DNA from: a virus
Direction: 5' to 3' (one strand)
IMG/VR virus record: IMGVR_UViG_3300037423_000863
DNA length: 46,378 bases
In this document: positions 1,069 to 42,508 of the stretch, piece after piece
How positions within the stretch are numbered: position 1 is the stretch's first letter
Layout of the letters: every line of letters starts with the position of its first letter
Translations under genes and position numbers: made by a program
Notes under the pieces: generated by a model
Told to the model about the DNA's origin: nothing
Seen by the model: the letters and a program-made list of their open reading frames with translations, nothing else
The model's database searches: none

Positions 1069-1530
1069 TCAGCCGTCCGCGAACAGGCTGACGATGGCGT
1101 GGAACAGATGATCCTTGAGCTGCTGATGCTCGGGCAGCCGGTGATACGGGACCAAGCAGGGGTGCTTCAGCGAGCGATGGCACTTGACCGGCCCGTAGGT
1201 GTAGCCCTGAGCGATCTTCGTCCGGCACCAGCTCCGATGCAGCGCCTTGGGCGTCAGGTGCGGGTTGGCTCGCAGCAGGCGGACGCCTTCGATTGCTGAC
1301 AGCTTCACGCCCGGCTCTGCGTTGTTCCAGCTCCGATGGCTGAAGTCGCCGTGACTGAGGCAGAAGGCGCGGTTGGCTTCGTGAGCGATCCGGGCAATCT
1401 CCACGTCCTGCAGCCCGTGGAAGCGGCGCGGCTGCGGCGCTGCGTCCGGCATGAAGAAGTAGCGATGCAGGGACGCGCCCAGCATCAGGCAGGCGATCAT
1501 GACTGCGAGGATCGCGAAAGCGTCGCTCAT
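1069..1530 (-). CDS. membrane-anchored RyR-domain protein
   Basis: N-terminal TM segment MSDAFAILAVMIACLMLGASL. RyR-type motif IARIAHEANRAF...KIAQGYTYGPVKCHRSLKHPCLVPYHRLPEHQQLKD. ATGA overlap with the spanin stop. Confidence 0.6.
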   Translation of the reverse strand: MSDAFAILAVMIACLMLGASLHRYFFMPDAAPQPRRFHGLQDVEIARIAHEANRAFCLSHGDFSHRSWNNAEPGVKLSAIEGVRLLRANPHLTPKALHRSWCRTKIAQGYTYGPVKCHRSLKHPCLVPYHRLPEHQQLKDHLFHAIVSLFADG

Positions 1531-2081
1531 CGGGGTTGCTCCTGTTTCTGAGGAAGCGCGGGCTGGGCAGCCTGCAGCTTGTCGTGCTGCTCTATTGTGC
1601 TTTGGACTTTGGCGCGGAGCCGGTCGTGGTCTTCGGCGAAGTCGAGGAGAACGGAGAAGGGCAGAGCGATAAGCTCGGGCCGTTCTGGATCAGACACCGG
1701 ACCCACGGGAGCATTTCCGGCGACGCCGGCTCCGTCGCGTCGAACGGGAGCGGCGGGGGCGGCGTAGGGGCATACTGCCTTACCTGGGCCGCGCAGCCGC
1801 AGGTCATCAGCATCGCGGCTAATAGCGCGCATCTTTTCATCGTTCTTGCTCCTGATCTTGGCCGTGACCTTGGCCGCGTTCGTCTGGATTTTCTGGACGG
1901 CCGCGAGGACATGTTGCGCTTCGCGTTCCTCGCCCCGCTTCTCAGCGGCGGCGATCTGCCCGTGATACCAATGCAGGCCGCCAGCGAAGGCGGCGGCAAC
2001 GGCGATCGCGATGGCAATGTAGAGCCAATACTTCTTAGCGAAGCCCAGCAGCTTCGCGCCGAGCGAGATTTCTTCGATCAT
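1527..2081 (-). CDS. i-spanin (Rz-like)
   Basis: N-terminal TM (YWLYIAIAIAVAAAFAGGL), then charged coiled-coil-like sequence. Sits directly after the holin (ATGA overlap). Contains an embedded lipoprotein ORF. Confidence 0.6.
   Translation of the reverse strand: MIEEISLGAKLLGFAKKYWLYIAIAIAVAAAFAGGLHWYHGQIAAAEKRGEEREAQHVLAAVQKIQTNAAKVTAKIRSKNDEKMRAISRDADDLRLRGPGKAVCPYAAPAAPVRRDGAGVAGNAPVGPVSDPERPELIALPFSVLLDFAEDHDRLRAKVQSTIEQHDKLQAAQPALPQKQEQPR
1592..1840 (-). CDS. embedded o-spanin (Rz1-like lipoprotein), 82 aa
   Basis: +1-frame ORF inside the i-spanin. AGGAGcaagaacg ATG. MKRCALLAAMLMTCGCAAQ signal/lipobox-like, then Pro-rich PTPPPPLPF. Confidence 0.5.
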   Translation of the reverse strand: MKRCALLAAMLMTCGCAAQVRQYAPTPPPPLPFDATEPASPEMLPWVRCLIQNGPSLSLCPSPFSSTSPKTTTGSAPKSKAQ

Positions 2082-2386
2082 GGCTTGCTCTCCGCATCGA
2101 CTTCGATGCTGCGCGTCCCGTCAGACAGCTTGGTGTTCAGCTTCCCGACCGGGCCGCCGACGAGAAGGCCGACGATGACGATGGTTGTGTTCAGGCAGCC
2201 CGCAGCCGCAAGCCCGGCGAGGATGTAGAGCTGGGTCGGCTGCAGGCTTGGAGCCCAATGGCCGAAGACGACGACGAACGAAGCGACGAGAACCCCGATG
2301 CCGAACGCGATCCCAGCCGCGCCGGCGGCCATGCCGTAGGCGTAGCGCTGGCCTTGCTCGAACGTGGTCGGACGCGGCAGGCTCAC
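2078..2386 (-). CDS. holin (putative, 2-3 TM segments)
   Basis: GTGA overlap with the endolysin stop. Hydrophobic stretches GMAAGAAGIAFGIGVLVASFVVVFG, LYILAGLAAAGCL and TIVIVGLLVGGPVG, then a charged C-terminus. Confidence 0.55.
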   Translation of the reverse strand: MSLPRPTTFEQGQRYAYGMAAGAAGIAFGIGVLVASFVVVFGHWAPSLQPTQLYILAGLAAAGCLNTTIVIVGLLVGGPVGKLNTKLSDGTRSIEVDAESKP

Positions 2387-2994
2387 CGCCAGCCGCCCTC
2401 ATCCAGAGCGTTCTGGAAGGCGATTGCGTAGCCCGCGATGAGCTGCGCCCGGTCGACGCCGTTGATGATCCGGCGGGCTTCAATGAATTCCGTCTGCCCG
2501 GCCGGGCGCGTGTCCGGCAGGAAGGCGTCGAAGCCGTAGCCCGTGAACACGCCTTCATCCATGCCGCGGCGGAGTATCTTCGCGGCGACATCGGGCCGAA
2601 GCGCCAGCTCAGGATGATCCTCGAGCGGCAGGCCGAGCTTCGCGCCCAGGTTCTGATAGTTGGTCCGGCCGGTGAGTTGGACATAGCCGCGCCCGCAGTA
2701 GAGCGCTCCATCACCGGGCCTCACGTTGCCTAGGCGCTTGGCGACATCAGGGCGGCTGCCCTTGATGTCATACATGCGCGTGAAATAGGCCGGGCCCCCG
2801 CACTCGGTAATCGGCTGCATCGTGTGCGCCGTTTCGTGATAGGCGGTCGCCAGCGCGTAAGCGACGTGAGCGATGGGCTCGCTCTGCATGGCCGCGAGGA
2901 TCGCGTTGCAGCCGTCGACTTCGCCTTGCGAAAGGGCTGGCTGAAACAGCGCGACCCTAATATCCGAGTAGAATAGCCCCGGCGCTTGAAGCAT
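2383..2994 (-). CDS. endolysin, glycoside hydrolase family 19-like
   Basis: Motifs AYHETAH and YCGRGYVQLTGRTNY. Start at ATG 2994 is preferred (AGGAGCC 8 nt upstream) over ATG 3021. Confidence 0.8.
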   Translation of the reverse strand: MLQAPGLFYSDIRVALFQPALSQGEVDGCNAILAAMQSEPIAHVAYALATAYHETAHTMQPITECGGPAYFTRMYDIKGSRPDVAKRLGNVRPGDGALYCGRGYVQLTGRTNYQNLGAKLGLPLEDHPELALRPDVAAKILRRGMDEGVFTGYGFDAFLPDTRPAGQTEFIEARRIINGVDRAQLIAGYAIAFQNALDEGGWR

Positions 2995-3054
2995 AAGGTG
3001 TTGGCTCCTGTCTGTCGGCATGGCCTACAACTTCCGACAAACTGGCGCAACCCT

Positions 3055-6000
3055 TTAGTGTCCGCGCTTCTTCCTTTCGACCGGGCCAAACATTCTATCC
3101 AGCATGTGATCGTAAGCGGTCGGGCCGCTCTTGACCTTCTTCCCGTCCGGTCCAAGCGAGCCCTCTTTGGGCCCGACGATGGCCTTGGCCGCCTTCTCTG
3201 CAGCAATCGGGCCGGTGAGCGTCGCCGTGGTCATGCCGCCCAAGGCACTCAGGATCGGGCCGCCCGGAACCGACGAGACGGCAGCACCGATGGCAGGGGC
3301 GACCGCGAAGTTGTAGAGCCCAGCGACCGCGTGGTATTCGGCGGCGTTGGTCTTACGGCTCTGCTGCGGTGCGCGGACGAACGGAATTCGCGACGCCTGT
3401 GGCGAGTAAGAAGGCGTCGGCAAAGCCTTCACGATGCTGACAAGGTTCGTTGCGTCCTGACCGGCATAGGCTCCCGCACCCAGCGACAGGGCCGGATCGC
3501 GGTTGAAGCGCAGCCCGTCCGCCGCGTTGATGTAGTTGTCGAACAGGCCGAGCGAGAACGTGCGGCTCGCCGCCAGCGCCGCGTTGTTCTTCCACCAGGT
3601 TCCTTCTTTGTCCCATTCCTTCTGACGGTCGGGGTTCCAGACGTATTCACGGCTGATGCTCGACATGAATTGCTCAAGGTAAAGCACAGCGGCGCTCAGG
3701 GCCGTTCCCGCCGTCATAGCGCCCAGCAGCAGCCATTGATGGTCCCGAGCCAACCGCGTCCCGCGCTTGAGGTTGCGCTTCAGCAGATGGCGATAGGCGG
3801 CCTGAGAGAAGCCGGTAATTGAATAGGTCGCATAGGACGCCAGCGGGTTCCGGCTCAGTGGCGCGACTTCCGCCGAACCCGGCTTCTGGATCGTCATGAA
3901 GTGCAGCCGGTCCAGAGCAGTGTTGTAGTCGAAGCCTTCCGGTCCCTGCAGCCACTCGTCGGACGGCAGCGCGCCGTTCAAGTCGACAATCTGCTTGGCG
4001 AAGGTCTTCGGGTCGCGGATGCCCAGCTCGCGCATCAGGTTCTCGGCTTCCTTGCCGCGATCCCCTCCATCGACAACGCGATGGGCCATGTCATTGATGA
4101 CGCTGCGACGCCCGACATCGGCAACAGCGGCGTCGGAAACCGCCGTGAGGAAGGTCAGGCCGCTATTGCGAAACAGGCCGCCGGCGAGCCTGTCCCAGCG
4201 GGTCGGGGTGTCGGCGGTCGTTCCGAAGCGATCCAGCGCGCTGAAGTGCTCGAGCAAGTGGTGGCGGATGAAGCCCTGAGCCCGCGCCCATTCCATCATT
4301 TCGTGGCGCTGACCTTTAATCAGGATGCCAGCCCAAGTCTTCGCCAGCGCCTGAGCGCCATGCAGCACGTTGCCGGTCACAACGCCGAGCGTCGACGGTT
4401 CGAAGGTCGACAGCGTGAACGCGCGACCCAGCATTGCCAGCGCGCCTTTGACCCTCAGGAAGCCCAGCGCGTAGTTGACGCCCGGATTGGCGAGGAAGCC
4501 GGTTCGCCTGTAGCGCCCGGACATCCGGTCGACCAACTTCCAGACATAATCGCGGTCCTGAGCCGGGACGCCCTCGCGCGCCATTTGATCGTCCAGCTGC
4601 TGCGCGATCGTCTTTGCGCTTTTCTTCGTGCCAGCGGGTCGGCCGAAGCGCCGGTTCCATTCCGCGCGACGCACCGACTGATGAATGTAATGCACCAACG
4701 ACGAAACCGGGCTGGGATTATAGAAGTCGCGCAGCAGCTCGTCCGCTTCAGCGGGCAGGGCGCGCGGCTTCTCGGAGCTGGGTAGCTTGGTGGTGGGCGT
4801 GTAGTCGGCGAACGTCTCTTGATGCAGGATCGCGTCAAGGTAGTTGTGAGCCGACTGCTGCGCGAAGGCGGAGCGGACATCATCGAACATGTCCGAGACA
4901 AGTCCGGCAATGTCCCCTTCTTCGCCGTCCTCCGCGCGCATCGCCTTCCGCAGCTCTTTATAGCCGTCGATCTTGTGCTGCAGCGCGATGTCGGCAAAGT
5001 CCTGCAGCTTCTCAGGGTCCGCTGCGATGGTTTCAGCGTCCGGGCCCACGTCGCGGTCAAACGCGATTTCATAGACCTTCGTGGCTTGCTCGGTGAATTT
5101 GTGCGGATCGCCAGCCACCAGCTCGCGGTCGGTCTGCCGGTTCAAATAGGCGGAGTCGCGCACATAGCCGATGTCCAGCCCGGCAGCGCGCTGGCTATAC
5201 CAACTGTTATTGAACGCCTTCCTAATGGCGCTGGCGAGAGGCGACAGCCCCATGTCGTCAAAGTTGGGGCTTTGGTCTTCCCGCAGCGTCAAGAGCTTCG
5301 ACAGCGTGTCGTTCTGTTCCCGCGTCAGCTTCGTGTAAACAAACCTGCTGGCGCCGACCTTTTCCAGCTCCGCAAAGACGGGGTTCAGCGCGGCGTTCGT
5401 CTGCATTTCAACGGAGCGCTCCCAAACCCGGCTGACATGGCGCGTCCCGCCCAGGTCAAAAGCAAAGTGGTCATGGATGGTGAGCGCAGCCTTCGACCCC
5501 CAACGGTCGGCGACCATTTTCACGCCATCTGCAGCAGCGGAAAAGCCGAGCGAACGCAGGTTGTTCATCTTCTGCATCGCCGTCATCGGATCTGCAGCGC
5601 GACGCGACCGTTCCTCTTTGTCGACCGCGCGATTGTGAAAAGCCGCGTCCACAGCGTCGAGGTCCGGCGCGATCAGCCGCGACAGGATGTTGCGCGCCTT
5701 GCCGCCTGAGCGCTTCACAGCCGCCTTCTGTTCGGGCGTCGCGACATCGTTGAACCCGGTCGCTTCGGCGAGGCTGGGATCGCCGTGCGCGTCCAGCATG
5801 TTCTCAGCGGCCAGCGAGTTAATCAGCGTCTGGAAGGCGTCGAAGATGCGGGCCCGCTCCTCATCCTTCGGGAAGGTGAGCTTAAAGCGTTCCTCGCTGT
5901 CCGACAGATAGGCGTCGTTGCCCTTGCCGACGAACTCGCTGCCGAGCCCTTCGTTCGCGAGTTTGAACCCGATCCACGCTTCGAAGGCGCGGGCGAGCAT

Positions 6001-9000
6001 TTCGGTCGGGCGCGTCCAATAATCGCCGTCCGCGCCGCCCTTCTTGTTCATGGCGTTCGCGCCCTGCCAATAGCGGCTCTTTTCCTTCGCCCGGCTGCGG
6101 CCGGAAAGGATATTGTCGATTTGGGTCTGCAGCGCGGTCTTCTGCTTGTCCGACTTGGTTTTCTCAATCTGAGCTCGCAGCCGCATGATCTTCAGCGCGA
6201 TGTCCGAACCGTCGAAGAACATCGTGTTCATCAGGTTCACGAATGCCTCTTGCACGTTCCTCGGCTGGAAGTCCGCGCCCTGATCGCGCACCAATCCCGA
6301 CAGGCCGCGCGCCTGCTCGTCCGACACACGGTCCAGCAGGTAATAGTCGAGTGCATGGCCCCATTCGTGGCTGAAGCTGTTGGAGCGCTTCGGCAGCGTG
6401 ATTTCCGCCTGCCCGTGGTTGTAGGAGCCAAGGAAGCTCGCCTTGCCGATGAGCTTCAGCTTCAGCGACCCGCCGAGCGAGAGCGCCTTGGGCGCGATGC
6501 CCAGCACCTTCGCCATCCCCTGCAGCGTCTGATGCGCGTCTAGCAGTTGGTCGATCGCATACTGCAGCGGCATGGACGGGGCGACGGCGACCTTGATCCC
6601 CGTGAGCTTGTCCAGCGCGTCGATCAGCAGCTTCGCCTTCCGCTTCGGCGGCAGGAGGTTGAATTTCTCCTCAGTCAGCCCGAGCGCTTGGATCGCGCTC
6701 GAGTAAGCCGACTGCCGGTTTGTGAACGATGCTTCTTCGAAGGTCGGCTGATAGGCGCCGCGGTCGGTCTTCTGATGAGTGTCGACCGACTGCGGCGCTT
6801 CAGCGTCGCCTAGAAGCTCGTCAGGGGCGGCGGTGGGGGTGGCGTCCCGCCCACGTTCGTCGGCGGCGGCGTCGGCGTCGGGGTTGGCGTCGGCGTCCCC
6901 CCGAAGAAGTGGCCGTGATGCCTGTGAGCCAATCCGAACAGGTCGAACAGGCTCCCGAACATGTCCGGCCTCTGAGCCCGCCATGCGTCGACCGCCGCCT
7001 TCCAGCCGTCGAGGTTGCCCTGATAGTCCTTGATCTTCGGGTGCGCCGTGATCCACTCGCCCAGCGGCCCCATCATGCTCATTACTGAGCCGCTGCCCGG
7101 AGCTGCCGGGGTGCCCGGAGCTGCTGGACCGCCCGGAGACGCCGGGACGGTCACGGTCGTCCCGCTGTTGAGGCTGTTCGCCACTGTGTCGCGCAGCTTC
7201 TGCCGAAGGTCCGCCGGGTTGGCGTATTGCCCCGGTTGAAGCGGAACCCCCGGCCCCGCGAAGATCGTTGGTTCTGCCATTGCCGTTCTCCTTGTCTGCT
7301 AGATGCCCGCCAGCCCGGTCGGGTCGATGACTACCGGCTGCGTTGTCACCACCTTCGGCTGCAGCGCGCTCGCCACTGCCGCCCTCAGGGCCGCGTTGTG
7401 TTGATCCCGGCTCAGGATGGGCGGCGGCGCGACCGGAACCGGCTGCGCCTGTGGCGTCGGCTGAGGAGCCGGTTGCTGATGCTGCGCCTCCATCATCGCC
7501 GGGATGAAGCCCATGCCCGGATTGTGAAGCATTTCCTTTACCGGAGTGTCCTTCTTCATGAGCAGCTGCGGAACTACGCCCAGCATGCCCCGGATTAGGT
7601 CGCCTAGTCCCATTGCCTTGCTCCATATCTAGCAGGGGCGCTTCGCCGCTGCGCTGCTCTAGCAGTCCGTTGAGGATGTCCGCCGGCGACTTGCCGGGGT
7701 GACTTTCGCCGAACATGTCGACGGTCGGCTTCTGCGCCTGAGCTTCGTCGACATAATCCTGCAGGAATTTCGTGACCGCCTTGACGCTGGCAGGGCGCTT
7801 CATGCCGGGCGAATAGAAGGCTTCGATCAGCCGCTCAGTCGTCGGCGACATCTGGCTGAAGGCGTCCTGCTGGCTCAGGATGTCGGCGGGCTTCTCTCCA
7901 CGGTTCCGGGCTTCGGCAACTCGCATGGCTGCGTCGGCGAGGTCGTTGGTGATGTCGTAGTGCTGGCCGATTTCGCCTGACGAGGCTGCCGCGCGCATCT
8001 TCGCCCAGGAGGGAGCCACATTCGCAAGTGAGGACGTGATCGCCCTGATTTCATTGTGGCTGCTCTCCATCAGCTTCTCGAGCAGCTTCGGATGCTCATA
8101 AGCCTTCGCGACTACCGCGTTCTCAATCCGTTCGATGCCCTTGGTCGACAGGCGATCCTTGCTTTCGAGCATGCCGCCGAGGTCGGCAGCCGTGCGGCTT
8201 TTCATGAATTCCGTCACAAAGCCCTTGTTGGCCGTGCTGTTCAGGTCGCCGCCCGCATACTTGCCGAGCATTTCAGGCGTGACGCCATCGGCGTCCGACC
8301 GGGCGCGCTCTACCGGCGACAGCTCTAGCTTGTTGTCGGTGTTGCTCTCGACAACGAACTGCCGCGCTTCCTCGGGCGTCATGTCCTGAGTGACGCGCCG
8401 GATGAGAACCGGGCGATCCATCCCCTCGGTGCTGAAGCCCTGACTTTCAATGAAGCGCTTGTAGGCGTCCGCCTTGTCGGGGTGCGCGTCATAGATGTTG
8501 TTGATCGCGAGCACGCGGCCATTGCCGGACAGAACCGTGTGGTCCGGCGCGACGATGGGCGCACCGCGATCGCTCGAAGGATCGCTGCCCAGCAGCTCGG
8601 GGTCGAACTTGCCAACGATGTCTTGCACCTGAAGCGCGGTCGTGTCTTTGCTGCGGTCGCGGTTCTGAAGGCTGCCGGTTGCCTTGTTGAGCGTCGCCGC
8701 GTCAACGACTTCCATCCGCGTCCGAACCTTGTTGCCCGCCGGGGTGCGAACGTGTTGCTCGCCGTCCTGCAGCGGCTGGGGCTCGCTCGGCTTCGCCGTG
8801 GCAAGGGCCGGAACGTCGCCAGCCGTCCCGGCGGAGCCCGGCCCATTGCCCTCCGCTGGCGCGACACTGGCAACAGGCTCGGGCGCAGGCAGCTTCGGCA
8901 CAGGAGCAGTGGCCGGGCCGCCCGAAGGCTTCGCTGGCACAAGGTCAGCGAAAGGATTGGCTTCAGGCGCCGGGAGCTGCGGCGCTCCATCGGGAGCCAT

Positions 9001-9951
9001 CGGCGCCGCGGTCGACTCCACATCGAAGTCCTGCCGTGCGCCAGTGTCGGAGCCGTTGCCGAACGCGCCGCCAGCGGCGCGAGCCGTGCGCTGCATGCCG
9101 CGAACAGCTGCGTTGCCGCCCGCTTCGAACAGCGTCTGTCCGAGCTTCGTGGGGCGGTTCATGAGCGCCGTGGTTCCGGCCGCAATCGCGATCTTCTCGG
9201 GGTTCAGGTCTTCGCCGGTTGCCAGCTCGCGAGCGGTTTCTTGTCCAGCTCCGAGCGTCGCACCGACTGCCGCGCCTCCGACCGGATGCGCGAGGGTCCG
9301 CGTCAGCAGTGATGCGTCTTCGCCAACGGGCAGGCGCGTAAATCCGGGGCGCATGGTGAGCAGCGAAGGGATTTCACTACCGGCGAAGCTCACGATTGGG
9401 TGCTGCGCCTGTTCCGCCTGTTGCGTTGCAGCGTCTTGCCCGATTGCCTTCTGGACGCCCTCGGGAAGAAGCGAGATAGCTTTCTGCTGCGCCTTGTCCA
9501 CCAGGTAGCCAGCGCCCGCTGCAGAAACCAAGCCGCCCAGCACGGCTGCGAGCCCGTTGGCCGCCGTCCCGATAACAGGGATCGCTTCGACCGGAGCCGT
9601 CAGGGTTCCGGCGGTCGCAAACCCCGCGCCGAACGCAGGAGCTGCTGCGACTGCAGGAGCAACGGCGCGCTCGGCTGAGTGAAGCAGGGTGCTTGCACGG
9701 CTGGGGCGCGGCTGCGTGTCTTTGCCTGTAATGAGGTCGCTAAGGGTGATTGGTTTTGTGCCGAACAGGTAGTCGGTAACGCGATCAATGACGCCGGGCC
9801 CCTCATCGGCAGCAGGCTTCGCCGCGACAGGCTTGCCGCCCTTCGGCACAAGGTCCGCGAACGCATTGGACGAAGCCACAGGCTTCGGCTGCGGCGCCGC
9901 AGGAGCGGGCCGGTTGCCGGGGATCAGATCATCGAACGGGTTCGTTGCCAC
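3055..9951 (-). CDS. giant virion-associated polyvalent-protein ORF (ParB-like N-part, HExxH zincin C-part); continuity across 6810..7613 uncertain
   Basis: Uninterrupted 2,298 codons from GTG 9951 (TAGTG overlap with the upstream gene). LQNRDRS...LSGNGRVLAI (ParB/Srx-like) near 8500..8680. SFSHEWGHALDYY near 6350..6380. Gly/Ala-rich hydrophobic segments at both termini. The central segment looks non-coding in this frame. Confidence 0.55.
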   Translation of the reverse strand: MATNPFDDLIPGNRPAPAAPQPKPVASSNAFADLVPKGGKPVAAKPAADEGPGVIDRVTDYLFGTKPITLSDLITGKDTQPRPSRASTLLHSAERAVAPAVAAAPAFGAGFATAGTLTAPVEAIPVIGTAANGLAAVLGGLVSAAGAGYLVDKAQQKAISLLPEGVQKAIGQDAATQQAEQAQHPIVSFAGSEIPSLLTMRPGFTRLPVGEDASLLTRTLAHPVGGAAVGATLGAGQETARELATGEDLNPEKIAIAAGTTALMNRPTKLGQTLFEAGGNAAVRGMQRTARAAGGAFGNGSDTGARQDFDVESTAAPMAPDGAPQLPAPEANPFADLVPAKPSGGPATAPVPKLPAPEPVASVAPAEGNGPGSAGTAGDVPALATAKPSEPQPLQDGEQHVRTPAGNKVRTRMEVVDAATLNKATGSLQNRDRSKDTTALQVQDIVGKFDPELLGSDPSSDRGAPIVAPDHTVLSGNGRVLAINNIYDAHPDKADAYKRFIESQGFSTEGMDRPVLIRRVTQDMTPEEARQFVVESNTDNKLELSPVERARSDADGVTPEMLGKYAGGDLNSTANKGFVTEFMKSRTAADLGGMLESKDRLSTKGIERIENAVVAKAYEHPKLLEKLMESSHNEIRAITSSLANVAPSWAKMRAAASSGEIGQHYDITNDLADAAMRVAEARNRGEKPADILSQQDAFSQMSPTTERLIEAFYSPGMKRPASVKAVTKFLQDYVDEAQAQKPTVDMFGESHPGKSPADILNGLLEQRSGEAPLLDMEQGNGTRRPNPGHAGRSSAAAHEEGHSGKGNASQSGHGLHPGDDGGAASATGSSADATGAAGSGRAAAHPEPGSTQRGPEGGSGERAAAEGGDNAAGSHRPDRAGGHLADKENGNGRTNDLRGAGGSASTGAIRQPGGPSAEAARHSGEQPQQRDDRDRPGVSGRSSSSGHPGSSGQRLSNEHDGAAGRVDHGAPEDQGLSGQPRRLEGGGRRMAGSEAGHVREPVRPVRIGSQASRPLLRGDADANPDADAAADERGRDATPTAAPDELLGDAEAPQSVDTHQKTDRGAYQPTFEEASFTNRQSAYSSAIQALGLTEEKFNLLPPKRKAKLLIDALDKLTGIKVAVAPSMPLQYAIDQLLDAHQTLQGMAKVLGIAPKALSLGGSLKLKLIGKASFLGSYNHGQAEITLPKRSNSFSHEWGHALDYYLLDRVSDEQARGLSGLVRDQGADFQPRNVQEAFVNLMNTMFFDGSDIALKIMRLRAQIEKTKSDKQKTALQTQIDNILSGRSRAKEKSRYWQGANAMNKKGGADGDYWTRPTEMLARAFEAWIGFKLANEGLGSEFVGKGNDAYLSDSEERFKLTFPKDEERARIFDAFQTLINSLAAENMLDAHGDPSLAEATGFNDVATPEQKAAVKRSGGKARNILSRLIAPDLDAVDAAFHNRAVDKEERSRRAADPMTAMQKMNNLRSLGFSAAADGVKMVADRWGSKAALTIHDHFAFDLGGTRHVSRVWERSVEMQTNAALNPVFAELEKVGASRFVYTKLTREQNDTLSKLLTLREDQSPNFDDMGLSPLASAIRKAFNNSWYSQRAAGLDIGYVRDSAYLNRQTDRELVAGDPHKFTEQATKVYEIAFDRDVGPDAETIAADPEKLQDFADIALQHKIDGYKELRKAMRAEDGEEGDIAGLVSDMFDDVRSAFAQQSAHNYLDAILHQETFADYTPTTKLPSSEKPRALPAEADELLRDFYNPSPVSSLVHYIHQSVRRAEWNRRFGRPAGTKKSAKTIAQQLDDQMAREGVPAQDRDYVWKLVDRMSGRYRRTGFLANPGVNYALGFLRVKGALAMLGRAFTLSTFEPSTLGVVTGNVLHGAQALAKTWAGILIKGQRHEMMEWARAQGFIRHHLLEHFSALDRFGTTADTPTRWDRLAGGLFRNSGLTFLTAVSDAAVADVGRRSVINDMAHRVVDGGDRGKEAENLMRELGIRDPKTFAKQIVDLNGALPSDEWLQGPEGFDYNTALDRLHFMTIQKPGSAEVAPLSRNPLASYATYSITGFSQAAYRHLLKRNLKRGTRLARDHQWLLLGAMTAGTALSAAVLYLEQFMSSISREYVWNPDRQKEWDKEGTWWKNNAALAASRTFSLGLFDNYINAADGLRFNRDPALSLGAGAYAGQDATNLVSIVKALPTPSYSPQASRIPFVRAPQQSRKTNAAEYHAVAGLYNFAVAPAIGAAVSSVPGGPILSALGGMTTATLTGPIAAEKAAKAIVGPKEGSLGPDGKKVKSGPTAYDHMLDRMFGPVERKKRGH
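6810..7280 (-). CDS. nested +1-frame gene 2, 156 aa, hypothetical (or true 5' end of the zincin protein)
   Basis: AAGGAGAAcggca ATG, 18 nt after the TAG of nested gene 1. Sequence MAEPTIFAGPGVPLQPGQYANPADLRQKL...HRHHGHFFGGTPTPTPTPTPPP... High GC3. Confidence 0.6.
   Translation of the reverse strand: MAEPTIFAGPGVPLQPGQYANPADLRQKLRDTVANSLNSGTTVTVPASPGGPAAPGTPAAPGSGSVMSMMGPLGEWITAHPKIKDYQGNLDGWKAAVDAWRAQRPDMFGSLFDLFGLAHRHHGHFFGGTPTPTPTPTPPPTNVGGTPPPPPPLTSF
7299..7613 (-). CDS. nested +1-frame gene 1, 104 aa, hypothetical
   Basis: GGAGcaaggca ATG. Sequence MGLGDLIRGMLGVVPQLLMKKDTPVKEMLHNPGMGFIPAMMEAQHQQ... About 80% G/C at codon position 3 by hand count, versus about 40% in the giant frame. Confidence 0.6.
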   Translation of the reverse strand: MGLGDLIRGMLGVVPQLLMKKDTPVKEMLHNPGMGFIPAMMEAQHQQPAPQPTPQAQPVPVAPPPILSRDQHNAALRAAVASALQPKVVTTQPVVIDPTGLAGI

Positions 9952-11477
9952 TATACGCCCTGCAGCGGGTGGCCGGTCATCGCTTCAAACCGCGCTTTCA
10001 CCTTGTCAGGGTCCGCGCCCGCTTTGATCGCCGCGAGCGCCTGCTGGGTAACGCTGTCGTTGTTCCGCTTCAGAGCGGTGAAGACTTGATCCACAGCGTC
10101 GGCAGGGTTGCCGCTCTTTTGAAGCAGCTTCGCGGCGCTCGTCCGCATGTTCTGGAACGCGCCTTCAGAAAGCGTCATGTGTTCCGCCGCCGCGCGCTGC
10201 TGGATGAGCTGCGTGATTGTCCCCATGTCCGAGTTGCTGAGTTGCGGCGGCGCCTTGTTGCTCGGTTTGCCCGGAACCGGGAGCCCTTCCACAACGTCGC
10301 GGATGTTGCGCTGTCCACGGTTATAATAGACGTTCAACAGACTGATCCCGGCCTGACGCCCGGCCGCCGGCGAAGCGAAGCGGGCGAAGCCGTTGCCGTC
10401 ATTGCCGACATAGCCTGCCTGAGAGCGAGCGAACGGGCCGTCGACGATGTTGCCCGGATTGTTGTTCTTCGGGTCCGCTCCCTCTGTCGATGCGATCGCG
10501 TCGAAGACCTGAGGGATGTTCTGGCGCGAAAACTGCTGATCCGGGGCGATGCCCAGCCGCGCCTGCATGGCCGCGAGCTTACCATCAACCGCCTGATCGC
10601 TGTTGTTGCCGCCAGCGCTGAAGCGCGGCGTCCAGCCGCCAACGCGCAGGCCGCCAGCACCTACATCGGTTGCATAGCGGCTGTCGCCGCTGGTCAAGTC
10701 CTGACCGCGCACGCGATCCTGATGCTCGAGGTCTTGCCCGCGCATAGTGGTCTTGGCGCTGATGTCCTGACCGCGCTCCGTCGCCGCCGCGCTGATGTTG
10801 GCAACATTCGTCGCTTTGGTGAGGTCCGCCGTGTAGCCCTGCTGCCGAATGTCGTCGGCGCGTCCCGGCGTCAGAGCGAAGTCGGCGCTGGGGCTTACGC
10901 CTTGCGCCGCCATGCCGCGCCGGACCAATCCCTCTCCGCCGCCCATCGCCGTGATCGCGCCAACGATGTCGCCGATGTTCGGGTTCTCCTGCGCCGTGGC
11001 AGCGCTCAGGATGAGCGGGATCATGGCGCGAGCAAGCGAGCTGTCGCTGCCCGTCAGGCCATTTGCGGCAGGGGCAGGGGCGTCAGCCACGACAGCAGCA
11101 GGCGCAGCAGCAACCGGCGCTGCGGCAACGCCGCCCGGAACTGCAGCCGGAACCGCCGTGGTGGCGGCCGGAACCGCCGTGGGGACAGTGGCAGGGGCGG
11201 GCTGCCCCATCGTCGCCAAGATAGTGTCAGCCATCGGGCCGAACGCCCGACGCGCCGCGGTGCGAACCTGCTGATCGCCCGTCTGTGCGCCATAGAGCCC
11301 GGCGTGAGCCCGCGCCTCCTCTGCAGATGCAGAGTAGTTGTCCATCTGCGCCTGCTGCAGCGCCTGCTTCGCCGCCAGCTCGGGATCGCCGAACAGCGCC
11401 TTGCCGACTAGCGACCCAATGACGCCGCCAAGCTGACTGTCGCCGCCGTAGTAGAAGGGGTTTGCGCCACGCGGCAT
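9951..11477 (-). CDS. internal virion/ejection protein, 508 aa
   Basis: Position between small internal proteins and the giant ORF. Three RGQD(I/L) repeats. ASTEGADPKNNNPGNIVDGPF...GFARFASPAAGRQAGISLL motif block. Confidence 0.5.
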   Translation of the reverse strand: MPRGANPFYYGGDSQLGGVIGSLVGKALFGDPELAAKQALQQAQMDNYSASAEEARAHAGLYGAQTGDQQVRTAARRAFGPMADTILATMGQPAPATVPTAVPAATTAVPAAVPGGVAAAPVAAAPAAVVADAPAPAANGLTGSDSSLARAMIPLILSAATAQENPNIGDIVGAITAMGGGEGLVRRGMAAQGVSPSADFALTPGRADDIRQQGYTADLTKATNVANISAAATERGQDISAKTTMRGQDLEHQDRVRGQDLTSGDSRYATDVGAGGLRVGGWTPRFSAGGNNSDQAVDGKLAAMQARLGIAPDQQFSRQNIPQVFDAIASTEGADPKNNNPGNIVDGPFARSQAGYVGNDGNGFARFASPAAGRQAGISLLNVYYNRGQRNIRDVVEGLPVPGKPSNKAPPQLSNSDMGTITQLIQQRAAAEHMTLSEGAFQNMRTSAAKLLQKSGNPADAVDQVFTALKRNNDSVTQQALAAIKAGADPDKVKARFEAMTGHPLQGV

Positions 11478-17074: not shown

Positions 17075-18112
17075 TTAGCTGCGGTTGAGAGCTGCGTTGA
17101 CAGCATCCCTCAACGATGTTGGCGGAGCGTTCTTGATCGGTGCGGATGAGCCTCTTGGGTCGGGAGCGATGGGCTTCTTCGCGGGCAGGACAGCCTTCAG
17201 CTGCTTGTTGACCCTCTCGTAAGCCTGTTCCGCCAGCTTGACCGCTTCCTCGGGGTTGGTTGGAGCCTTGCCCGTTTCCATGACGATCGCGCGGACGGTC
17301 GTTTCGACCAATTCGGCTTTCCGGGCATAATCGGGGTCCGCCGCCTTCGTCCGAGCTTCCCATTCCTGAACCGCGTTCGCGCTTGCTGTCGCGTTCGTTT
17401 CCGCGTTCTGCCTCTCGGTGCGCCGGGTTTCCTCGGTTCGACGCGCTTCGGTTGCTTGGGTCCGAAGCCGCTCATTCGCTCGCGCTTGGGCAAGCTCCTG
17501 GGCCGCTTCTTCGTCCAGCGCCCCGCTGTCGACCCGCTGCTGCAGGTCATCAGGCAGAACGCGGCCTAGCGCATTGTCGAGCACCGCGAGATTGTTCGCG
17601 AAATACTCCCGCACTTCAGCGAGATTGGCCGGGTCGCCGCTTTTGAGCTTCGCCATAATGTCGAAGCCTTCAGCGACTTCCGCAGGCGATAGCCCATGCT
17701 CTTGCATGAAGCCGTCAATCTGACGGAAGCGCCCCGCATCTTCGGCGAAGCCATTGCGCTCGGCGATGACCTGCTTCCAACGTGGGTGTTCATGGAAGGG
17801 CAGCTTGGCGTCGGCTTCAGCTTCGCTTTCCGCGTTGGCTTCGCCTTCCGGTTTGGCCTCTGCTTCGGCTGCGGCTGCAGCTTCTCCCTTGCCCTCAGCA
17901 GCGGACGGGTCTGCTTCCTTCTTGTCTTCCGGCTTGATCGCATCGCGAACAACCGAAAGCAGATCGGGTTTAGCGTCCTGTTCATCCGCAGGCGACGACC
18001 CTGCGGGAGTTGCGTCAGTGGCCTCTACCGTCGCCGCTGCGGCTTGGGTTTCGTCCTCTTTTTCCGCAGTGGGCGACGCTGCGGTTGGTGCGCCCTGAGT
18101 GTCCAACGACAT
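17075..18112 (-). CDS. scaffolding protein
   Basis: Highly acidic, Ala/Glu-rich helical protein between the portal and capsid genes. Confidence 0.7.
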   Translation of the reverse strand: MSLDTQGAPTAASPTAEKEDETQAAAATVEATDATPAGSSPADEQDAKPDLLSVVRDAIKPEDKKEADPSAAEGKGEAAAAAEAEAKPEGEANAESEAEADAKLPFHEHPRWKQVIAERNGFAEDAGRFRQIDGFMQEHGLSPAEVAEGFDIMAKLKSGDPANLAEVREYFANNLAVLDNALGRVLPDDLQQRVDSGALDEEAAQELAQARANERLRTQATEARRTEETRRTERQNAETNATASANAVQEWEARTKAADPDYARKAELVETTVRAIVMETGKAPTNPEEAVKLAEQAYERVNKQLKAVLPAKKPIAPDPRGSSAPIKNAPPTSLRDAVNAALNRS

Positions 18113-26297: not shown

Positions 26298-26311
26298 TCA
26301 GCAGCCCCGGC

Positions 26312-26581
26312 TTAGTAGAGAGCGATGATCTTGCCAGCGGCCACGGTTGTCCCGGTCGCTAGCACTCGAGAGGGACGGACGTTCAGCGTCTGCCCAGCAA
26401 TCACGGTGAAGGTGGCAGCAACGCCATCGTCGCCTTCCAAGGCAACGTCGCCAGCAGCGCCGAAGTAGAGCGCCTTGGGCTTCTTCGCGAGGTCGGCAGC
26501 ATCGCTAGGAACGACAACAGCGAACGTCTCAGGGTTGCTGTGGATGTCGGCGAAACCTTGGAAGTCGTCAGGTGCGGCCAT
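26312..26581 (-). CDS. spike base protein, RcGTA Rcc01079-like (from motif memory)
   Basis: 89 aa: FAVVVPSDAADLAKKPKALYFGAAGDVAL...NVRPSRVLATGTTVAAGKIIALY. Confidence 0.5.
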   Translation of the reverse strand: MAAPDDFQGFADIHSNPETFAVVVPSDAADLAKKPKALYFGAAGDVALEGDDGVAATFTVIAGQTLNVRPSRVLATGTTVAAGKIIALY

Positions 26582-26807
26582 CGGCTAAGGCTCCGTCGCG
26601 TTGGTTGCCGGGTTGGTATAGCGTTGGGTGTTGTCCGACGCAATGTCTGATGCGTGTTGCTACATGTTGGGGGAAGTGGGTTTTCGAAACTGAAAATTGG
26701 TGCGGACGCCCGATAGTTCTTTCGGCGCCGGCTCCTGGGTGGTGGCCGGGGGGCGGGCGCGAGAGTGAGAAGGCCACGGCCGGGGTGCGGCCCAGCCACC
26801 CCACAGG

Positions 26808-26840
26808 GGCGCCCGCTGTGTCAGCTACACAGTGGGCGCC
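26808..26840. promoter_or_regulatory. 14-bp inverted repeat in the 303-nt non-coding gap after terS
   Basis: GGCGCCCGCTGTGT-cagct-ACACAGTGGGCGCC. One position is G-T on the plus strand and C-A on the minus strand. Confidence 0.5.
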
Positions 26841-26884
26841 GCGCTGATTGTGCTGTGAAGACAGCCACCTAGCGGAGTGCTGCT

Positions 26885-27322
26885 CTAGCGATGCGCCCCA
26901 TTCTTGGGCGTCACGTCGATCATCGCGGCGTCTTTCGCCTGCTTGGCTCGCTCAATCACCGCCATCAGCTCCGCCTCATCCATTTCGGCTAGCGGCTTGT
27001 CGCCGTCCTTCTTGTCCGTCTCGGAGCGCTCCGCGATCCACTTGGCGGCCTGAAAGCGGGTCGCAGCAGGCGTCGACTTGTCCAGAAGCTCGTCTAGCGT
27101 CTTCAGCGCCTTCAGCCGTAGCTCGCCTTTCAGCTTCGCATCGCAGCCAGCTTCGAGGGCTCTTTGCACTGCACGGCTGGCGAGGATGATCGTGACGCTA
27201 CTCTCAGGTGAGTAACCGGCTTCTGCCTTCGCGGCCTCTGCATCGGCTCCCCTAAGCATCGCAGCCACAAGCCGCTCCTGCATTTCGGTAAGCCCTTCGC
27301 TCCTCGCTAGCTCCTGTCCCAT
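26885..27322 (-). CDS. terS: terminase small subunit
   Basis: LTEMQERLVAAMLRGADAEAAKAEAGYS HTH-type N-terminus typical of small terminases. First gene of the late strand. Confidence 0.6.
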   Translation of the reverse strand: MGQELARSEGLTEMQERLVAAMLRGADAEAAKAEAGYSPESSVTIILASRAVQRALEAGCDAKLKGELRLKALKTLDELLDKSTPAATRFQAAKWIAERSETDKKDGDKPLAEMDEAELMAVIERAKQAKDAAMIDVTPKNGAHR

Positions 27323-27422
27323 TGCTGCCGATCCCTGTCTGATGGTGTTGGTTGACCTTCCGACACTTTGTCGCTACGTCGCAGGCGACGTTAACAGACA
27401 ACGTCCAACAACGGGAGTGCAT
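27323..27422. promoter_or_regulatory. divergent intergenic region (terS versus small plus-strand gene) with dyads
   Basis: TTGACC at 27353..27358. Inverted repeats GTCGC..GCGAC and GACGTT..AACGTC. Confidence 0.3.
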
Positions 27423-27536
27423 ATGTTCCAGACTGTCATCGTTCTAGGCGGCCTCATCGGCCTTTGCGTCTTCATGGGTGAGCTAGCCGCCAAGCGGGCT
27501 CGCATCCTGTCGGCGCTTCGCCGGGAAGACGCATGA
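27423..27536 (+). CDS. small membrane peptide, 37 aa
   Basis: GGGAGtgcat ATG. Sequence MFQTVIVLGGLIGLCVFMGELAAKRARILSALRREDA. Confidence 0.45.
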   Translation: MFQTVIVLGGLIGLCVFMGELAAKRARILSALRREDA

Positions 27537-27619
27537 GCTGCGCCACCCCTGAGGATGCCACCCGCATCCCATCGCCACTTTGCTCCACCCCTTACCCCCC
27601 TAAAGGGGGGTATAAGGGA

Positions 27620-27694
27620 GGTGGCGCAAGCGACGGGGCCGATCCCGCGCCACCCTGCGCCACCTTGCGCCACCTACAGATTGTCGGTGGCGCA
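27620..27694. repeat. GCGCCACC iteron/operator array
   Basis: Three perfect tandem 10-bp units (27647..27676), bracketed by inverted GGTGGCGC at 27620..27627 and 27687..27694. Further copies near 27539 and 27770. Confidence 0.7.
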
Positions 27695-27810
27695 GCCCTT
27701 TGGAGCCGCGTTCGTCGCGATGCTCCTTTCTTCCTGATGATCCTTGCAGTCGCGCTGATCCAAGCCGCGCTGCGCCATTTCCATTTGATGCACTGAGAAG
27801 GAGAGAGACT

Positions 27811-27981
27811 GTGAAGACCAACCCTGAGAAAGCTCGCGCCGTTCGCGATGCTGCCGACAAGCTGCGGGATGAAGCGACCGACATCGACATCGCTGCCTGC
27901 CAAGCCTTCGTCGATGCGCTGGATGATCTGACCATCGGAGAGACTGCCCGTCTCTACGACATGATCAAGGAGGCGCGCTGA
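27811..27981 (+). CDS. hypothetical early protein, 56 aa
   Basis: GAAGGAGAGAGACt GTG. Sequence VKTNPEKARAVRDAADKLRDEATDIDIAACQAF... Confidence 0.55.
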   Translation: MKTNPEKARAVRDAADKLRDEATDIDIAACQAFVDALDDLTIGETARLYDMIKEAR

Positions 27982-28286
27982 TGGGCCTTCATCCACGCTT
28001 CAATGGTCAGACTGAAAACCGCTTTGCTTGGGACCGTCAGGGTTTCATGCGCCTCAATGGCGTCCTGCTGTCCATGCACACGGATGAAGACGGGCCGCAC
28101 CTTCGAGGGTCGCTGTGGCAGCTGAACCCTGACGCAGCCGACTACATCCCTGTCCGCCAGCTGATCCCGTGCGCGAAGGTTCAGCCGCCGCTGCTGGGCG
28201 TCCGTGGCCGCGCTGGATGGTCCGTGCGCGTCGAATTGGCCGACGCTGAAGCGCTGATCGCTCGGCAGCTCCCCGTCATCATCTGA
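27981..28286 (+). CDS. hypothetical early protein, 101 aa
   Basis: TGATG coupling. ORF-track protein. Confidence 0.55.
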   Translation: MGLHPRFNGQTENRFAWDRQGFMRLNGVLLSMHTDEDGPHLRGSLWQLNPDAADYIPVRQLIPCAKVQPPLLGVRGRAGWSVRVELADAEALIARQLPVII

Positions 28287-28353
28287 CGCGATCTGGCGGG
28301 CCGGTGAGAGCGACCCGCCTAACCGCATCAGCGGACACAGAAGGAGAAGACGA

Positions 28354-28698
28354 ATGAAGCTCTATTACGAACGCGAGCTGGGGCTGTGGCAGCTTCCCGG
28401 TCAACAGACGAAGCGCGCCGAGCGCGTTGATATCCCGACCGACACGCAGGGGCTCTGCATCTTCCTGAACGACCGGCAGACGCCGCTAGAGCCGCCCAAG
28501 CTCGAAGTCGCTAGCGATCTGACGCCTGAGGCTCAGGAGCGCTTGTTTCGCAGCCCCGGCCACATCGTTCGCTCGCCCGCAGCTCCCAGCTACGCCGCGC
28601 AGTCTGTCCAGCTGGACGATGACTTCGACCGGCTGCCGCTCGCTCGCCAGCTCGATCTGGCTGCCCGTGCGATGGAGAACGCGAGGGCAGCGCTCTGA
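28354..28698 (+). CDS. hypothetical early protein, 114 aa
   Basis: GAAGGAGAAGacga ATG. Confidence 0.6.
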   Translation: MKLYYERELGLWQLPGQQTKRAERVDIPTDTQGLCIFLNDRQTPLEPPKLEVASDLTPEAQERLFRSPGHIVRSPAAPSYAAQSVQLDDDFDRLPLARQLDLAARAMENARAAL

Positions 28699-28733
28699 CC
28701 CTGAACACCACCTGGACGAAAAGGAGACATTCA

Positions 28734-29054
28734 ATGCCACGCATCAACTTCAAGACCGACGAAATCGACACCATCGCCAAAGTCGTTGACCGCGTTCAGC
28801 AGCTCGAAGGGCTGCACCTGACCCGCGACGAGCGCCGTAGCCGCTCCGATTGGGTCATGGACTTCTGCGCCGTGCAGAACAGCGACACGCCGCTGGACCT
28901 TCAGCGCATGCTCGAAGCGGATGACAACAACTTCGCTCACGACGCCTTCGGCATCGCGCGGCACCTAGACCGCGACGACAGCAGCCCGACCGGCGGACAG
29001 CTAACCGGCTGCTTCCTGCCCCGCTTCACTCGGAAAGACGCGCTCGCCGACTGA
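28734..29054 (+). CDS. hypothetical early protein, 106 aa
   Basis: AAAGGAGAcattca ATG. Confidence 0.6.
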   Translation: MPRINFKTDEIDTIAKVVDRVQQLEGLHLTRDERRSRSDWVMDFCAVQNSDTPLDLQRMLEADDNNFAHDAFGIARHLDRDDSSPTGGQLTGCFLPRFTRKDALAD

Positions 29055-29139
29055 CGCCCCGAGAGCCCGCTGAGTGCGACAGCGGGCCGACGATGGCGAC
29101 AGCCAGCCGTAGACAACGGCCAACACAGGAGAAGACCGA

Positions 29140-29535
29140 ATGTTCGATTACCGAGACTTCAAGCGCGAGACGATGGAGGCAGCCAACAAAGTCGGCCTCT
29201 ACTGCTCGACACCGCTCCACATCGAATGGCTGACTAGCGATCAGCTGAAGCGCCTTAGGGGCAAGAACATCGTCACGGACGAGACATGGCAATATCGCCT
29301 GCTCGCCAACCGTTCGATACTCGCTGAAATCTCTTACGGCTGGATGATGGGCAAGCCCGTGTTGGGCCTGACGGTCTTCAGCAAGGATGACCCTGAAAGC
29401 GACTTCGACCGCTCCAAAGCCTGCTTCACCATCCCTGAGCTAGTCGAGGCGCTAGAACTGCTGAACGACAGCGACCGCGACCCCGTGGACACTCCCGACC
29501 GCGAGAGTTGGGCAGAAGCGCAGGGCGAAGCATGA
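29140..29535 (+). CDS. hypothetical early protein with acidic C-terminus, 131 aa
   Basis: ACAGGAGAAGaccga ATG. Confidence 0.6.
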   Translation: MFDYRDFKRETMEAANKVGLYCSTPLHIEWLTSDQLKRLRGKNIVTDETWQYRLLANRSILAEISYGWMMGKPVLGLTVFSKDDPESDFDRSKACFTIPELVEALELLNDSDRDPVDTPDRESWAEAQGEA

Positions 29536-41660: not shown

Positions 41661-42434
41661 TTACTGCTTGGGTGCGTTCGCCTGCTCTAACCAGCCGCCT
41701 GAAGTCTGCTGTCCGCTAGAAGGGGACGACACAGGCGCATTGCCTTGGGTCGCCGCCGCAGTCTCCGCACCGTTCGCCCCCGACTGACCCGCGCTCGCCG
41801 CCGGGGGCTGACCAAAACCCGAACCGTTGCCGAACCCGGATTGCTGGGCGGCATGCCCGCCCTGATTGCCGAACCCGCCTGTCGCAGCAGGAGCTGCGGC
41901 AGCACCACCAAAGCCGTTCGCAGCACCGCCCCCGGTCGGCTGCTGAAGACCATGATCACCCTTGGACAGCCGCTCGAAGCCTTTATAGCCCGATTGGCTG
42001 GCGGGGTTCGGAGTGAGCCATTCCGCTACCCTGTTCTTGTCGTCATGGCCGTCCTTTCCTGCTTCGATCCCGACCTTGATGGCGACCCGCCGTCCGTCCA
42101 GCGCCTGATAGCCCTCAGGTGCAGGCGGCAGCTGATAGCCCGCCGGATTGTTCGGCCCCGCGCCGCCACATTCGAGGATGCGCGTGATCGCGATGGTTCC
42201 CATCTTGCGGAAGCCCTCGGTGTTTCCGTTGAAATACGGATCGCCGATAACGTCCCACAGCTTCCGTCCCGCGTAGGGCTGCCCCTGATCCACGGTCAGC
42301 TCCACGTCCAAATACCGGCTTGGAGTTGCCGAGGTCTTCAGACCCCTAACATTAAGATTTGCCCATACAAGCAAACCCTTGGGAAGTAAGTCAAAATCAG
42401 AGGTTTGGCCCGCGTGTCCGCTGAAATCCATCAT
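41661..42434 (-). CDS. DUF669-like putative ssDNA-binding protein with Gly/Gln-rich tail
   Basis: FDLLPKGLLVWANL... N-domain. Synteny with a Sak4-like ATPase and a helicase. Confidence 0.5.
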   Translation of the reverse strand: MMDFSGHAGQTSDFDLLPKGLLVWANLNVRGLKTSATPSRYLDVELTVDQGQPYAGRKLWDVIGDPYFNGNTEGFRKMGTIAITRILECGGAGPNNPAGYQLPPAPEGYQALDGRRVAIKVGIEAGKDGHDDKNRVAEWLTPNPASQSGYKGFERLSKGDHGLQQPTGGGAANGFGGAAAAPAATGGFGNQGGHAAQQSGFGNGSGFGQPPAASAGQSGANGAETAAATQGNAPVSSPSSGQQTSGGWLEQANAPKQ

Positions 42435-42508
42435 TGCAAGAGGCTCCTTGTCTTACCTAAAGTTAATTGTGGATAAAGTTGGCCGCAAATTACTAACCTT
42501 GACCAACA
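42435..42508. promoter_or_regulatory. AT-rich island containing a perfect DnaA box
   Basis: tgtggataa at 42468..42476 (TTATCCACA on the minus strand). Local GC is far below that of the flanks. Confidence 0.5.

Follow-up and report, generated by a model that had tools for sequence, protein, structure and literature searches.

Out-of-frame coding DNA in the linker of a giant DdrB-like virion protein gene: a probable insertion read through in the host frame

The virus record IMGVR_UViG_3300037423_000863 (46,378 nucleotides; the window, meaning the whole stretch of DNA that was analysed) represents a phage of about 46 kb. It contains a giant open reading frame (ORF) for a DdrB-like protein, in which a ParB-like module is connected through a linker to a zincin-bearing C-terminal module (C-module). 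Inside the linker, the coding signal leaves the frame of the giant ORF (frame 0) and is found in the +1 frame, where two small ORFs (ORF1 and ORF2) have start signals of their own. The giant ORF is open throughout, as the original prediction stated; its sole stop codon is the terminal one. The question raised by this locus is how one uninterrupted frame came to include DNA that looks coding in another frame. Our answer is that 0.72 to 0.84 kb of foreign coding DNA was probably inserted into the linker of the giant gene, out of register with it, and is read through in frame 0.

Coding statistics were obtained with a codon-usage model trained on 20 other genes of the window. On either side of the segment, frame 0 of the giant ORF scored about -3.6 to -3.9 per codon. 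Between 7620 and 6900, frame 0 had a G+C content at third codon positions (GC3) of 0.50, a codon log-likelihood of -4.30 per codon and no stops. The +1 frame of the same stretch had a GC3 of 0.80 and a log-likelihood of -3.81 per codon, which is the level of genuine in-frame genes, and contained one stop. The +2 frame had 14 stops over 7620..6900 and 15 over 7635..6802. Antisense coding of the segment was rejected on the basis of 3 to 11 stops per antisense frame and a poor likelihood. The cumulative frame-0 log-odds began to fall at 7621 and to rise at 6898; 241 codons lie between these two change points. An off-frame beat frame 0 in 23 sliding windows, all of them within 7671..6832; the remainder of the giant ORF, the giant genes of two relatives and the 20 other window genes yielded none. 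The shift of coding signal from frame 0 to the +1 frame, originally proposed from a hand count, was thus confirmed by the computed GC3 values, and frame 0 inside the segment showed off-frame and not normal statistics when coding potential was calculated over the frames.

Four relatives of the giant gene were found in the collections searched: IMGVR_UViG_3300028041_000001 (L002, with L004, L005 and L012; 68-74% identity in the C-module), IMGVR_UViG_2718218194_000010 (L003, with L006; 58-61% identity), IMGVR_UViG_3300033072_000588 (L007; 35-53% identity, without the ParB module) and Microcystis phage Mae-Yong1326-1 (L008, OP028995; a 2,441-aa ORF with 27% identity over 97% of the C-module). The giant gene is one uninterrupted ORF in all four. 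L002 and L003 have the ParB module of the window, and their linkers to the motif RG(A/S)Y(Q/E)P.F.EASFTNRQS comprise only 40 and 53 residues, respectively, with frame-0 statistics throughout and no flagged windows. Both flanks of the segment in the window align to L002 and L003, the left one through GLLEQRSG... and the right one through VDTHQKTDRGAYQP. In the window and in L003 and L007, a single ORF holds both N-terminal residues 155-290 and the C-module of about 1,250 aa, regardless of what intervenes. The alignment of homologues called for in the original prediction therefore showed that the two halves are not separate genes and that frame 0 is open in each relative. It did not support a conserved nested gene pair: L002 and L003 lack the whole segment, and conservation of both frames was not observed. 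Because these two ParB-bearing relatives, at two divergence depths, are without the segment, parsimony favors an insertion over an ancestral segment.

The edges of the insertion lie somewhere in 7636..7621 on the left and in 6900..6802 on the right. From 6898 to about 6800, frame 0 and the +1 frame could not be distinguished by coding statistics, in agreement with the dual-coding stretch predicted between a run of six G (G6) and the TAG at 6810. This zone may belong to the end of ORF2 or to the native acidic linker. It had also been noted that both transitions coincide with homopolymer runs. The right change point does fall at the G6 run, and a run of four C (C4) is present at 7635..7638, but the coincidence is weak evidence because G/C runs of at least 4 nt are frequent in the region (about 1.1 per 100 nt, and 0.54 per 100 nt across the window).

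The insertion, its out-of-frame coding statistics, the kept host frame and the one-ORF architecture of the relatives are direct observations. The model built on them is that foreign coding DNA would have entered the linker between the ParB-like module and the zincin/C-terminal module, bringing along a stop-ribosome-binding site (RBS)-ATG junction, then a 104-codon ORF followed by another RBS-ATG and by the greater part or the whole of a 156-codon ORF. This DNA would have the orientation of the host gene and lie one nucleotide off register. Its length would be a multiple of three, given that the flanks keep the same phase here and in the relatives. Ribosomes starting at 9951 would cross the insert in frame 0 and produce the full-length protein with an additional spacer of 240 to 280 residues rich in G, A, S and R. 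This spacer would be tolerated because it is sited in a linker that is already variable among the relatives, and selection may have retained nothing but an in-phase insertion free of stops, since the N-terminal region and the C-module have to share a chain. Among the models considered originally, that of one giant protein whose linker overlaps two +1-frame genes fits best, but the spacer would be a lineage-specific insertion and not native linker that was overprinted.

A C-module of about 1,200 to 1,250 aa, from (R/K)G.Y.P.F.EAS(F/Y)TNR onward, is common to giant proteins with differing N-terminal modules (N-modules). It is carried by the ORFs at 1640..7519 in L007, which is without ParB, and at 1458..8783 in OP028995, which is annotated as a peptidoglycan transglycosylase. 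The varied N-modules ahead of the shared motif indicate that the point just upstream of it is a recurrent module boundary, and this is the site of the insertion.

To estimate how easily frame 0 could be open by chance, three randomisations were applied with the ORF1 and ORF2 proteins held fixed. The probability of no frame-0 stop was 0.016 with synonymous resampling from phage usage, 0.013 when the synonymous codons of each ORF were permuted and 0.027 with codon-order shuffling, and the mean number of stops expected in frame 0 was 3.2 to 3.8 across the randomisations. In the same off-frame of the real window genes, 2.1% of codons were stops and the longest open run was 203 codons in 10,232. 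The actual register of the host frame has 0 stops, and the other two have 3 and 15. The 1-3% chance of a stop-free frame, together with the one-in-three chance of the phase, points to selection for an uninterrupted chain, at insertion or later. This argues that read-through in frame 0 is under selection, and the one-chain architecture of injected polyvalent proteins appears to be under selection as well. The frame-0 product of the core (241 aa) consists of 21% G, 14% A, 12% S and 11% R and has a net charge of about +1. Its hydrophobic content is 6.6%, compared with 26.7% in the remaining protein, and 93% of its residues are G, S, P, A, R, H, D, E, N, Q, T or K. This is the composition of a flexible spacer; disorder is indicated by composition only.

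The positions given in the original prediction for the two +1-frame ORFs with RBS and ATG, for the TAG at 7631..7629 and for the C4 run were reproduced, and all its other statements about the sequence hold. The stop-RBS-ATG units before ORF1 and at the ORF1/ORF2 junction are alike at 17 of 21 nt, and the two RBSs equal the best ribosome-binding sites in the window. ORF1 and ORF2 are both complete, have RBSs of their own and occupy an alternative frame of the host ORF, as is characteristic of nested genes. Their codon usage fits the phage as well as that of resident genes, and their RBSs are of resident style, suggesting that the donor was probably a phage of similar composition or that the cassette has been resident for long. 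No promoter-like or terminator-like sites were detected in 6400..8000 by a promoter and terminator scan. No Pfam, PHROG or NCBIfam domain was found in ORF1 or ORF2, and so no endonuclease or intein domain, and the Rfam search gave no intron and no other RNA family. An intein or a self-splicing intron was rejected on these grounds. Both ORFs are rich in low-complexity P/A/T/G, and the AlphaFold model of ORF2, made from the single sequence without an alignment, had a mean predicted local distance difference test score (pLDDT) of 45 and was uninformative. The chances are about even that ORF1 and ORF2 are translated by internal initiation as nested genes.

The strongest rival accepts the same insertion but takes ORF1 and ORF2 as fossils of the donor, untranslated or useless, so that the giant protein with its spacer would be the sole living product. 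This may be the case, although we rate it below an even chance. It agrees with the missing homologues of both ORFs, the poor ORF2 model (pLDDT 45) and the low complexity of both sequences, and internal initiation would face competition from ribosomes already translating frame 0. On the other hand, both ORFs retain an ATG, an ideally spaced GGAG, an intact frame and resident-grade codon usage, and stops should arise fast in 260 codons if these were neutral. An extension of the insertion model is an "intragenic moron," a two-gene cassette in the cleavable disordered linker of an injected polyvalent protein. All three products would be made from it: read-through in frame 0 would give the giant protein, and internal initiation in the +1 frame would give ORF1 and ORF2. 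This proposal is tentative, and we consider it rather unlikely.

Searches for homologues were made with both ORFs and with the insert. Back-translated ORF2 peptides had no match in IMG/VR, GTDB genomes or JGI metagenomes, and a word-indexed search of 5.8 billion proteins gave no match to ORF2. The exhaustive HMMER search of ORF2 against 1.84 billion representatives yielded a spurious, repeat-driven match (P0001) and a borderline one (P0002; library-wide E value of 1e-3). In pairwise BLASTP, P0002 and ORF2 aligned with an E value of 0.014 and 32% identity over 71 aa, with WKAAVDA, GSLFD and GGTPTPTPTPTP in common. The gene for P0002 (499 aa) lies on a phage-like contig, with a VanY-like endolysin gene two genes downstream of it. 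This position is typical of internal virion proteins, and the possible kinship of P0002 with ORF2 is taken as a lead only. The P0002 locus lies at 8001..9500 of the Logan SRR29078113 contig (L009), with an HNH/NUMOD4 endonuclease gene nearby at 5299..5823. The likeness of ORF2 to giant proteins (VDAWRAQRP-DMFG / VDEAQAQKPTVDMFG) was at chance level in Smith-Waterman alignments with shuffles and was discarded. ORF1 had no match in IMG/VR, and its N-terminus had none in the word index. The frame-0 segment with its flanks also had no match, the candidate list being filled by low-complexity words, and exact-product look-ups of the giant protein and ORF2 found neither on record. No internal source copy of the insert was detected in the window by tblastn or by a blastn self-search, and tblastx of the insert gave low-complexity noise only. 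Homologues of ORF1 and ORF2 were present in none of the fetched loci, including 28.6 kb of the 45.6-kb contig of the closest relative. The DNA of the region had no match among GenBank phages. The window is absent from this collection, in which a 6-kb probe gave at best 67.6% identity over 22% of its length.

Several of these results weigh against the insertion of foreign genes. ORF1 and ORF2 had no convincing homologue, and hence no donor, in any collection searched. Because no donor homologue was found, only coding statistics and start signals mark these genes as foreign. No second genome with the insert was found among the collections searched. The edges are imprecise by 15 to 100 nt and could not be fixed more tightly, because the native linker is repetitive (LL[DEG] motifs, D/A/P-rich) and the flanking 8-mer is not significant. 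This 8-nt direct repeat, GAAGCGCC, whose two flanking copies are 843 nt apart (3 x 281), was considered as a target-site duplication and dropped as evidence (p = 0.14).

That the segment is ancestral native linker on which two genes were overprinted, and that the relatives lost it, is very unlikely. In favor of this reading, sampling is thin, with four relatives, and linker length varies among them. However, two independent clean deletions would be needed to account for the two ParB-bearing relatives, and frame 0 inside the segment has off-frame statistics, unlike a linker that has long been translated.

Programmed recoding is highly improbable. A +1 slip at CCC_C (7638..7635) would end a ParB-only protein at the TAG at 7631..7629, and a -1 slip near the G6 run or the ORF2 stop, aided by a hairpin, would fuse ORF2 to the C-terminal 1,250 aa. 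The frame-0 CCC_C does lie two codons ahead of the +1-frame TAG, but it is a common sequence without other support. Partial heptamers (C_GGG_GGG at 6903 and A_CCC_CCA at 6840) lie within the zone that is open in both frames, and a strong, window-specific hairpin starts 6 nt past the ORF2 TAG. However, the ORF2 frame contains no canonical X_XXY_YYZ site, and the hairpin is 92 nt from C_GGG_GGG and 29 nt from A_CCC_CCA, outside the range of 5 to 9 nt and too far for stimulation. The hairpin has a folding energy of -42.5 kcal/mol in a 91-nt context (z = -4.5) and extends across the insert's right edge. At the equivalent positions of L002, L003 and L007 the folding was not unusual (z = 0.1 to 0.9), and seven other 60-nt windows of the giant gene fold equally well or better. 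G6 and C4 are short for transcriptional slippage. Recoding is also needless because frame 0 is open, leaves the stop-free frame 0 unexplained and shows no conservation in the relatives. The recoding at G6 that was originally considered is thus unlikely.

The remaining possibility, also raised in the original prediction, is that two compensating homopolymer errors or mutations conceal a true layout of a ParB gene ending at the TAG, then ORF1, then ORF2 fused in frame to the zincin/C-terminal part. Two features speak for it: at 7631..7611 the stop-RBS-ATG junction is shifted by a single nucleotide relative to the ParB frame, and the right change point falls at the G6 run. It is nevertheless highly improbable, as it needs two independent errors at short runs and about 245 stop-free frame-0 codons (1-3% chance), other window genes show no frame break, the homopolymer coincidence is weak where G/C runs of at least 4 nt are frequent, the flanks of the segment are natively in the same frame in the relatives, and it would split the N-terminal region from the C-module, which are on one ORF in every relative.

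Table 1. Positions of the giant ORF, the inserted segment and associated features in the window
Feature	Position	Strand	Remarks
Giant ORF	3055..9951	-	2,298 codons, GTG start; DdrB-like polyvalent virion protein (predicted); single-ORF homologues L002, L003, L007, OP028995
DdrB-like ParB domain (PF18763)	8392..8736	-	E = 9.1e-30; profile positions 3-120 of 121
Native linker, left flank GLLEQRSGEAPLLDM	7624..7668	-	Alignable with GLLRQRDG... of L002
C4 run	7635..7638	-	Frame-0 CCC_C quadruplet just ahead of the +1-frame TAG
+1-frame TAG	7629..7631	-	15 nt ahead of ORF1 ATG; belongs to the stop-RBS-ATG unit
ORF1 Shine-Dalgarno GGAG	7621..7624	-	7 nt ahead of ATG
Insertion core	6899..7621	-	241 frame-0 codons with +1-frame statistics; missing from L002 and L003
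ORF1	7299..7613	-	104 aa, +1 frame, GGAG-N7-ATG
ORF2 Shine-Dalgarno AAGGAGA	7287..7293	-	GGAG 7 nt ahead of ATG
ORF2	6810..7280	-	156 aa, +1 frame, AAGGAGA and GGAG-N7-ATG
G6 run	6897..6902	-	At the right-hand change point
Dual-coding zone	6810..6898	-	(ACGCCG)n-like; TPTPTP in +1, DADANPDAD in frame 0
RNA hairpin	6747..6804	-	G+C-rich; 15-bp core 6798..6784 / 6769..6755; starts 6 nt past ORF2 TAG
RGAYQPTFEEASFTNRQS	6709..6762	-	First conserved motif of the C-module, common to all relatives; module boundary
Zincin-like metallopeptidase region	5806..6369	-	HEWGH 6355..6369 (aa 1195-1199); LPD1 (PF18796) 5806..6033, E = 2e-14
AAAEGGDNAAGSHRPDR and GPEGGSGER			Predicted peptides of the frame-0 spacer
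DTPVKEMLHNPGMGFIPAMMEAQHQQ and IKDYQGNLDGWK			Predicted peptides of ORF1 / ORF2 (+1 frame)

The ParB part of the giant protein shares 30% identity with P1 DdrB and P7 Prt in tblastn, over about 350 aa for P1 DdrB. A ParB-like domain and zincin/LPD1 are present on one ORF, which is the combination expected of a DdrB-like polyvalent protein. The genes of the terminase, the portal and the major head protein are located upstream of the giant ORF on the same strand, and an endolysin gene is directly downstream. This location among late/virion genes, together with ParB and zincin, indicates a polyvalent virion protein sensu Iyer et al. 2017, and by every testable criterion the predicted product is a DdrB-like polyvalent virion protein. 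Virion packaging, delivery into the host and proteolytic processing are known for P1 DdrB only; its processed form is of about 76 kDa, and the protease is probably the zincin that it carries itself (PMC5512222).

The GTG start of the giant ORF shares one base with the TAG of the upstream gene for a 508-aa protein (TAGTG at 9949..9953), which suggests translational coupling. The motif N/D-P/A-F-x-D-L-V/I-P with a P/A/Q-rich tract recurs in the giant protein at aa 4-11, 29-36 and 332-339 (about 9940..9917, 9865..9842 and 8956..8933), and the giant protein of L002 has a copy at aa 45-52. The ORF1 stretch NPGMGFIPA plus PAPQPTPQAQP resembles this N-terminal motif of giant proteins, a likeness made uncertain by low complexity; the local alignment score of ORF1 with L002 was 66, and the maximum in 300 shuffles was 64.

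Elsewhere in the window, three ORFs on the minus strand have a low GC3, about 0.8 being typical: 42453..42983 (0.45), 41661..42434 (0.67) and 17075..18112 (0.66). These may be mis-called or recently acquired genes. The stretch 26300..29450, about 3 kb, contains no ORF of at least 150 aa on either strand and includes three of the seven G/C runs of at least 6 nt in the window (26748, 27595 and 27605). The stretch may hold small genes or serve as a regulatory/origin region. A search for tRNA genes gave none anywhere in the window.

The locus is a natural example of an essential giant gene that would have absorbed foreign coding DNA in phase, in a stop-free register and within a length-tolerant linker. 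It suggests that a protein segment of 240 to 280 residues can arise in one step from the alternative frame of other genes. Gene callers hide embedded ORFs behind a giant ORF, and ORF1 and ORF2 are listed in none of the collections searched. If they are expressed, this would represent a new route of accessory-gene acquisition in phages. Should all three products be made, giant virion proteins would have linkers that serve as landing pads for genes without the splitting of an essential gene, and the alternative-frame read-out of the newcomers would be a spacer, possibly trimmed by the zincin, which could be a first step to new polyvalent modules. The system is small and experimentally tractable.

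As in P1 DdrB and other polyvalent proteins, a ParB domain of the DdrB-like type is followed by a zincin on one large polypeptide encoded among late/virion genes. P1 DdrB carries ParB and the metallopeptidase on a single chain of 995 aa; the giant protein described here is 2.3 times longer and has an extra C-terminal module of about 1,000 aa. According to Iyer et al. (2017; PMC5512222), polyvalent proteins are highly mosaic; modules are exchanged at linkers, and here L007 and Mae-Yong1326-1 share the C-module with other N-modules. The mosaicism known so far involves in-frame modules, whereas the DNA inserted here is out of frame, has its own starts and would give a spacer and not a domain.

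In lambda Rz/Rz1 and the phiX174 overlaps, a complete gene with its own RBS lies in the +1 frame of a same-strand phage gene. Those pairs are conserved and arose from overprinting of resident sequence, and both products are proven. The nested +1 layout is the same here, but the ORFs probably came by insertion, are missing from relatives and have putative products. The morons of lambdoid phages are lineage-specific extra genes of late operons that lie between genes and have their own promoter and terminator. ORF1 and ORF2 likewise are lineage-specific extra genes in a late operon, but they are intragenic, with no promoter-like or terminator-like sites, and in this they differ from a moron. Mobile insertions in phage genes include the homing-endonuclease insertion in nrdA of Aeromonas phage Aeh1, T4 gene 60/39 and inteins. 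In these cases too, extra DNA is present in an essential phage gene without loss of function, whereas here the gene would be read through, with no splitting or splicing.

The concept closest to this case is that of out-of-frame remodelling or out-of-frame lateral transfer, described by Watson, Lopez and Bapteste (2021; PMC8788219), where a stretch of a gene's coding sequence stems from other coding DNA read in an alternative frame. The definition requires an identified donor gene family (Watson 2021, PMC8788219); here the coding statistics and start signals agree with the concept, and a donor family was not found. Disorder of the alternative-frame region, another trait of such genes, is indicated here by the spacer's composition. 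Compared with the cases described by Watson, the segment proposed here is long (240 to 280 aa), the putative donor ORFs are intact with their starts inside the recipient, and the recipient is a phage virion gene.

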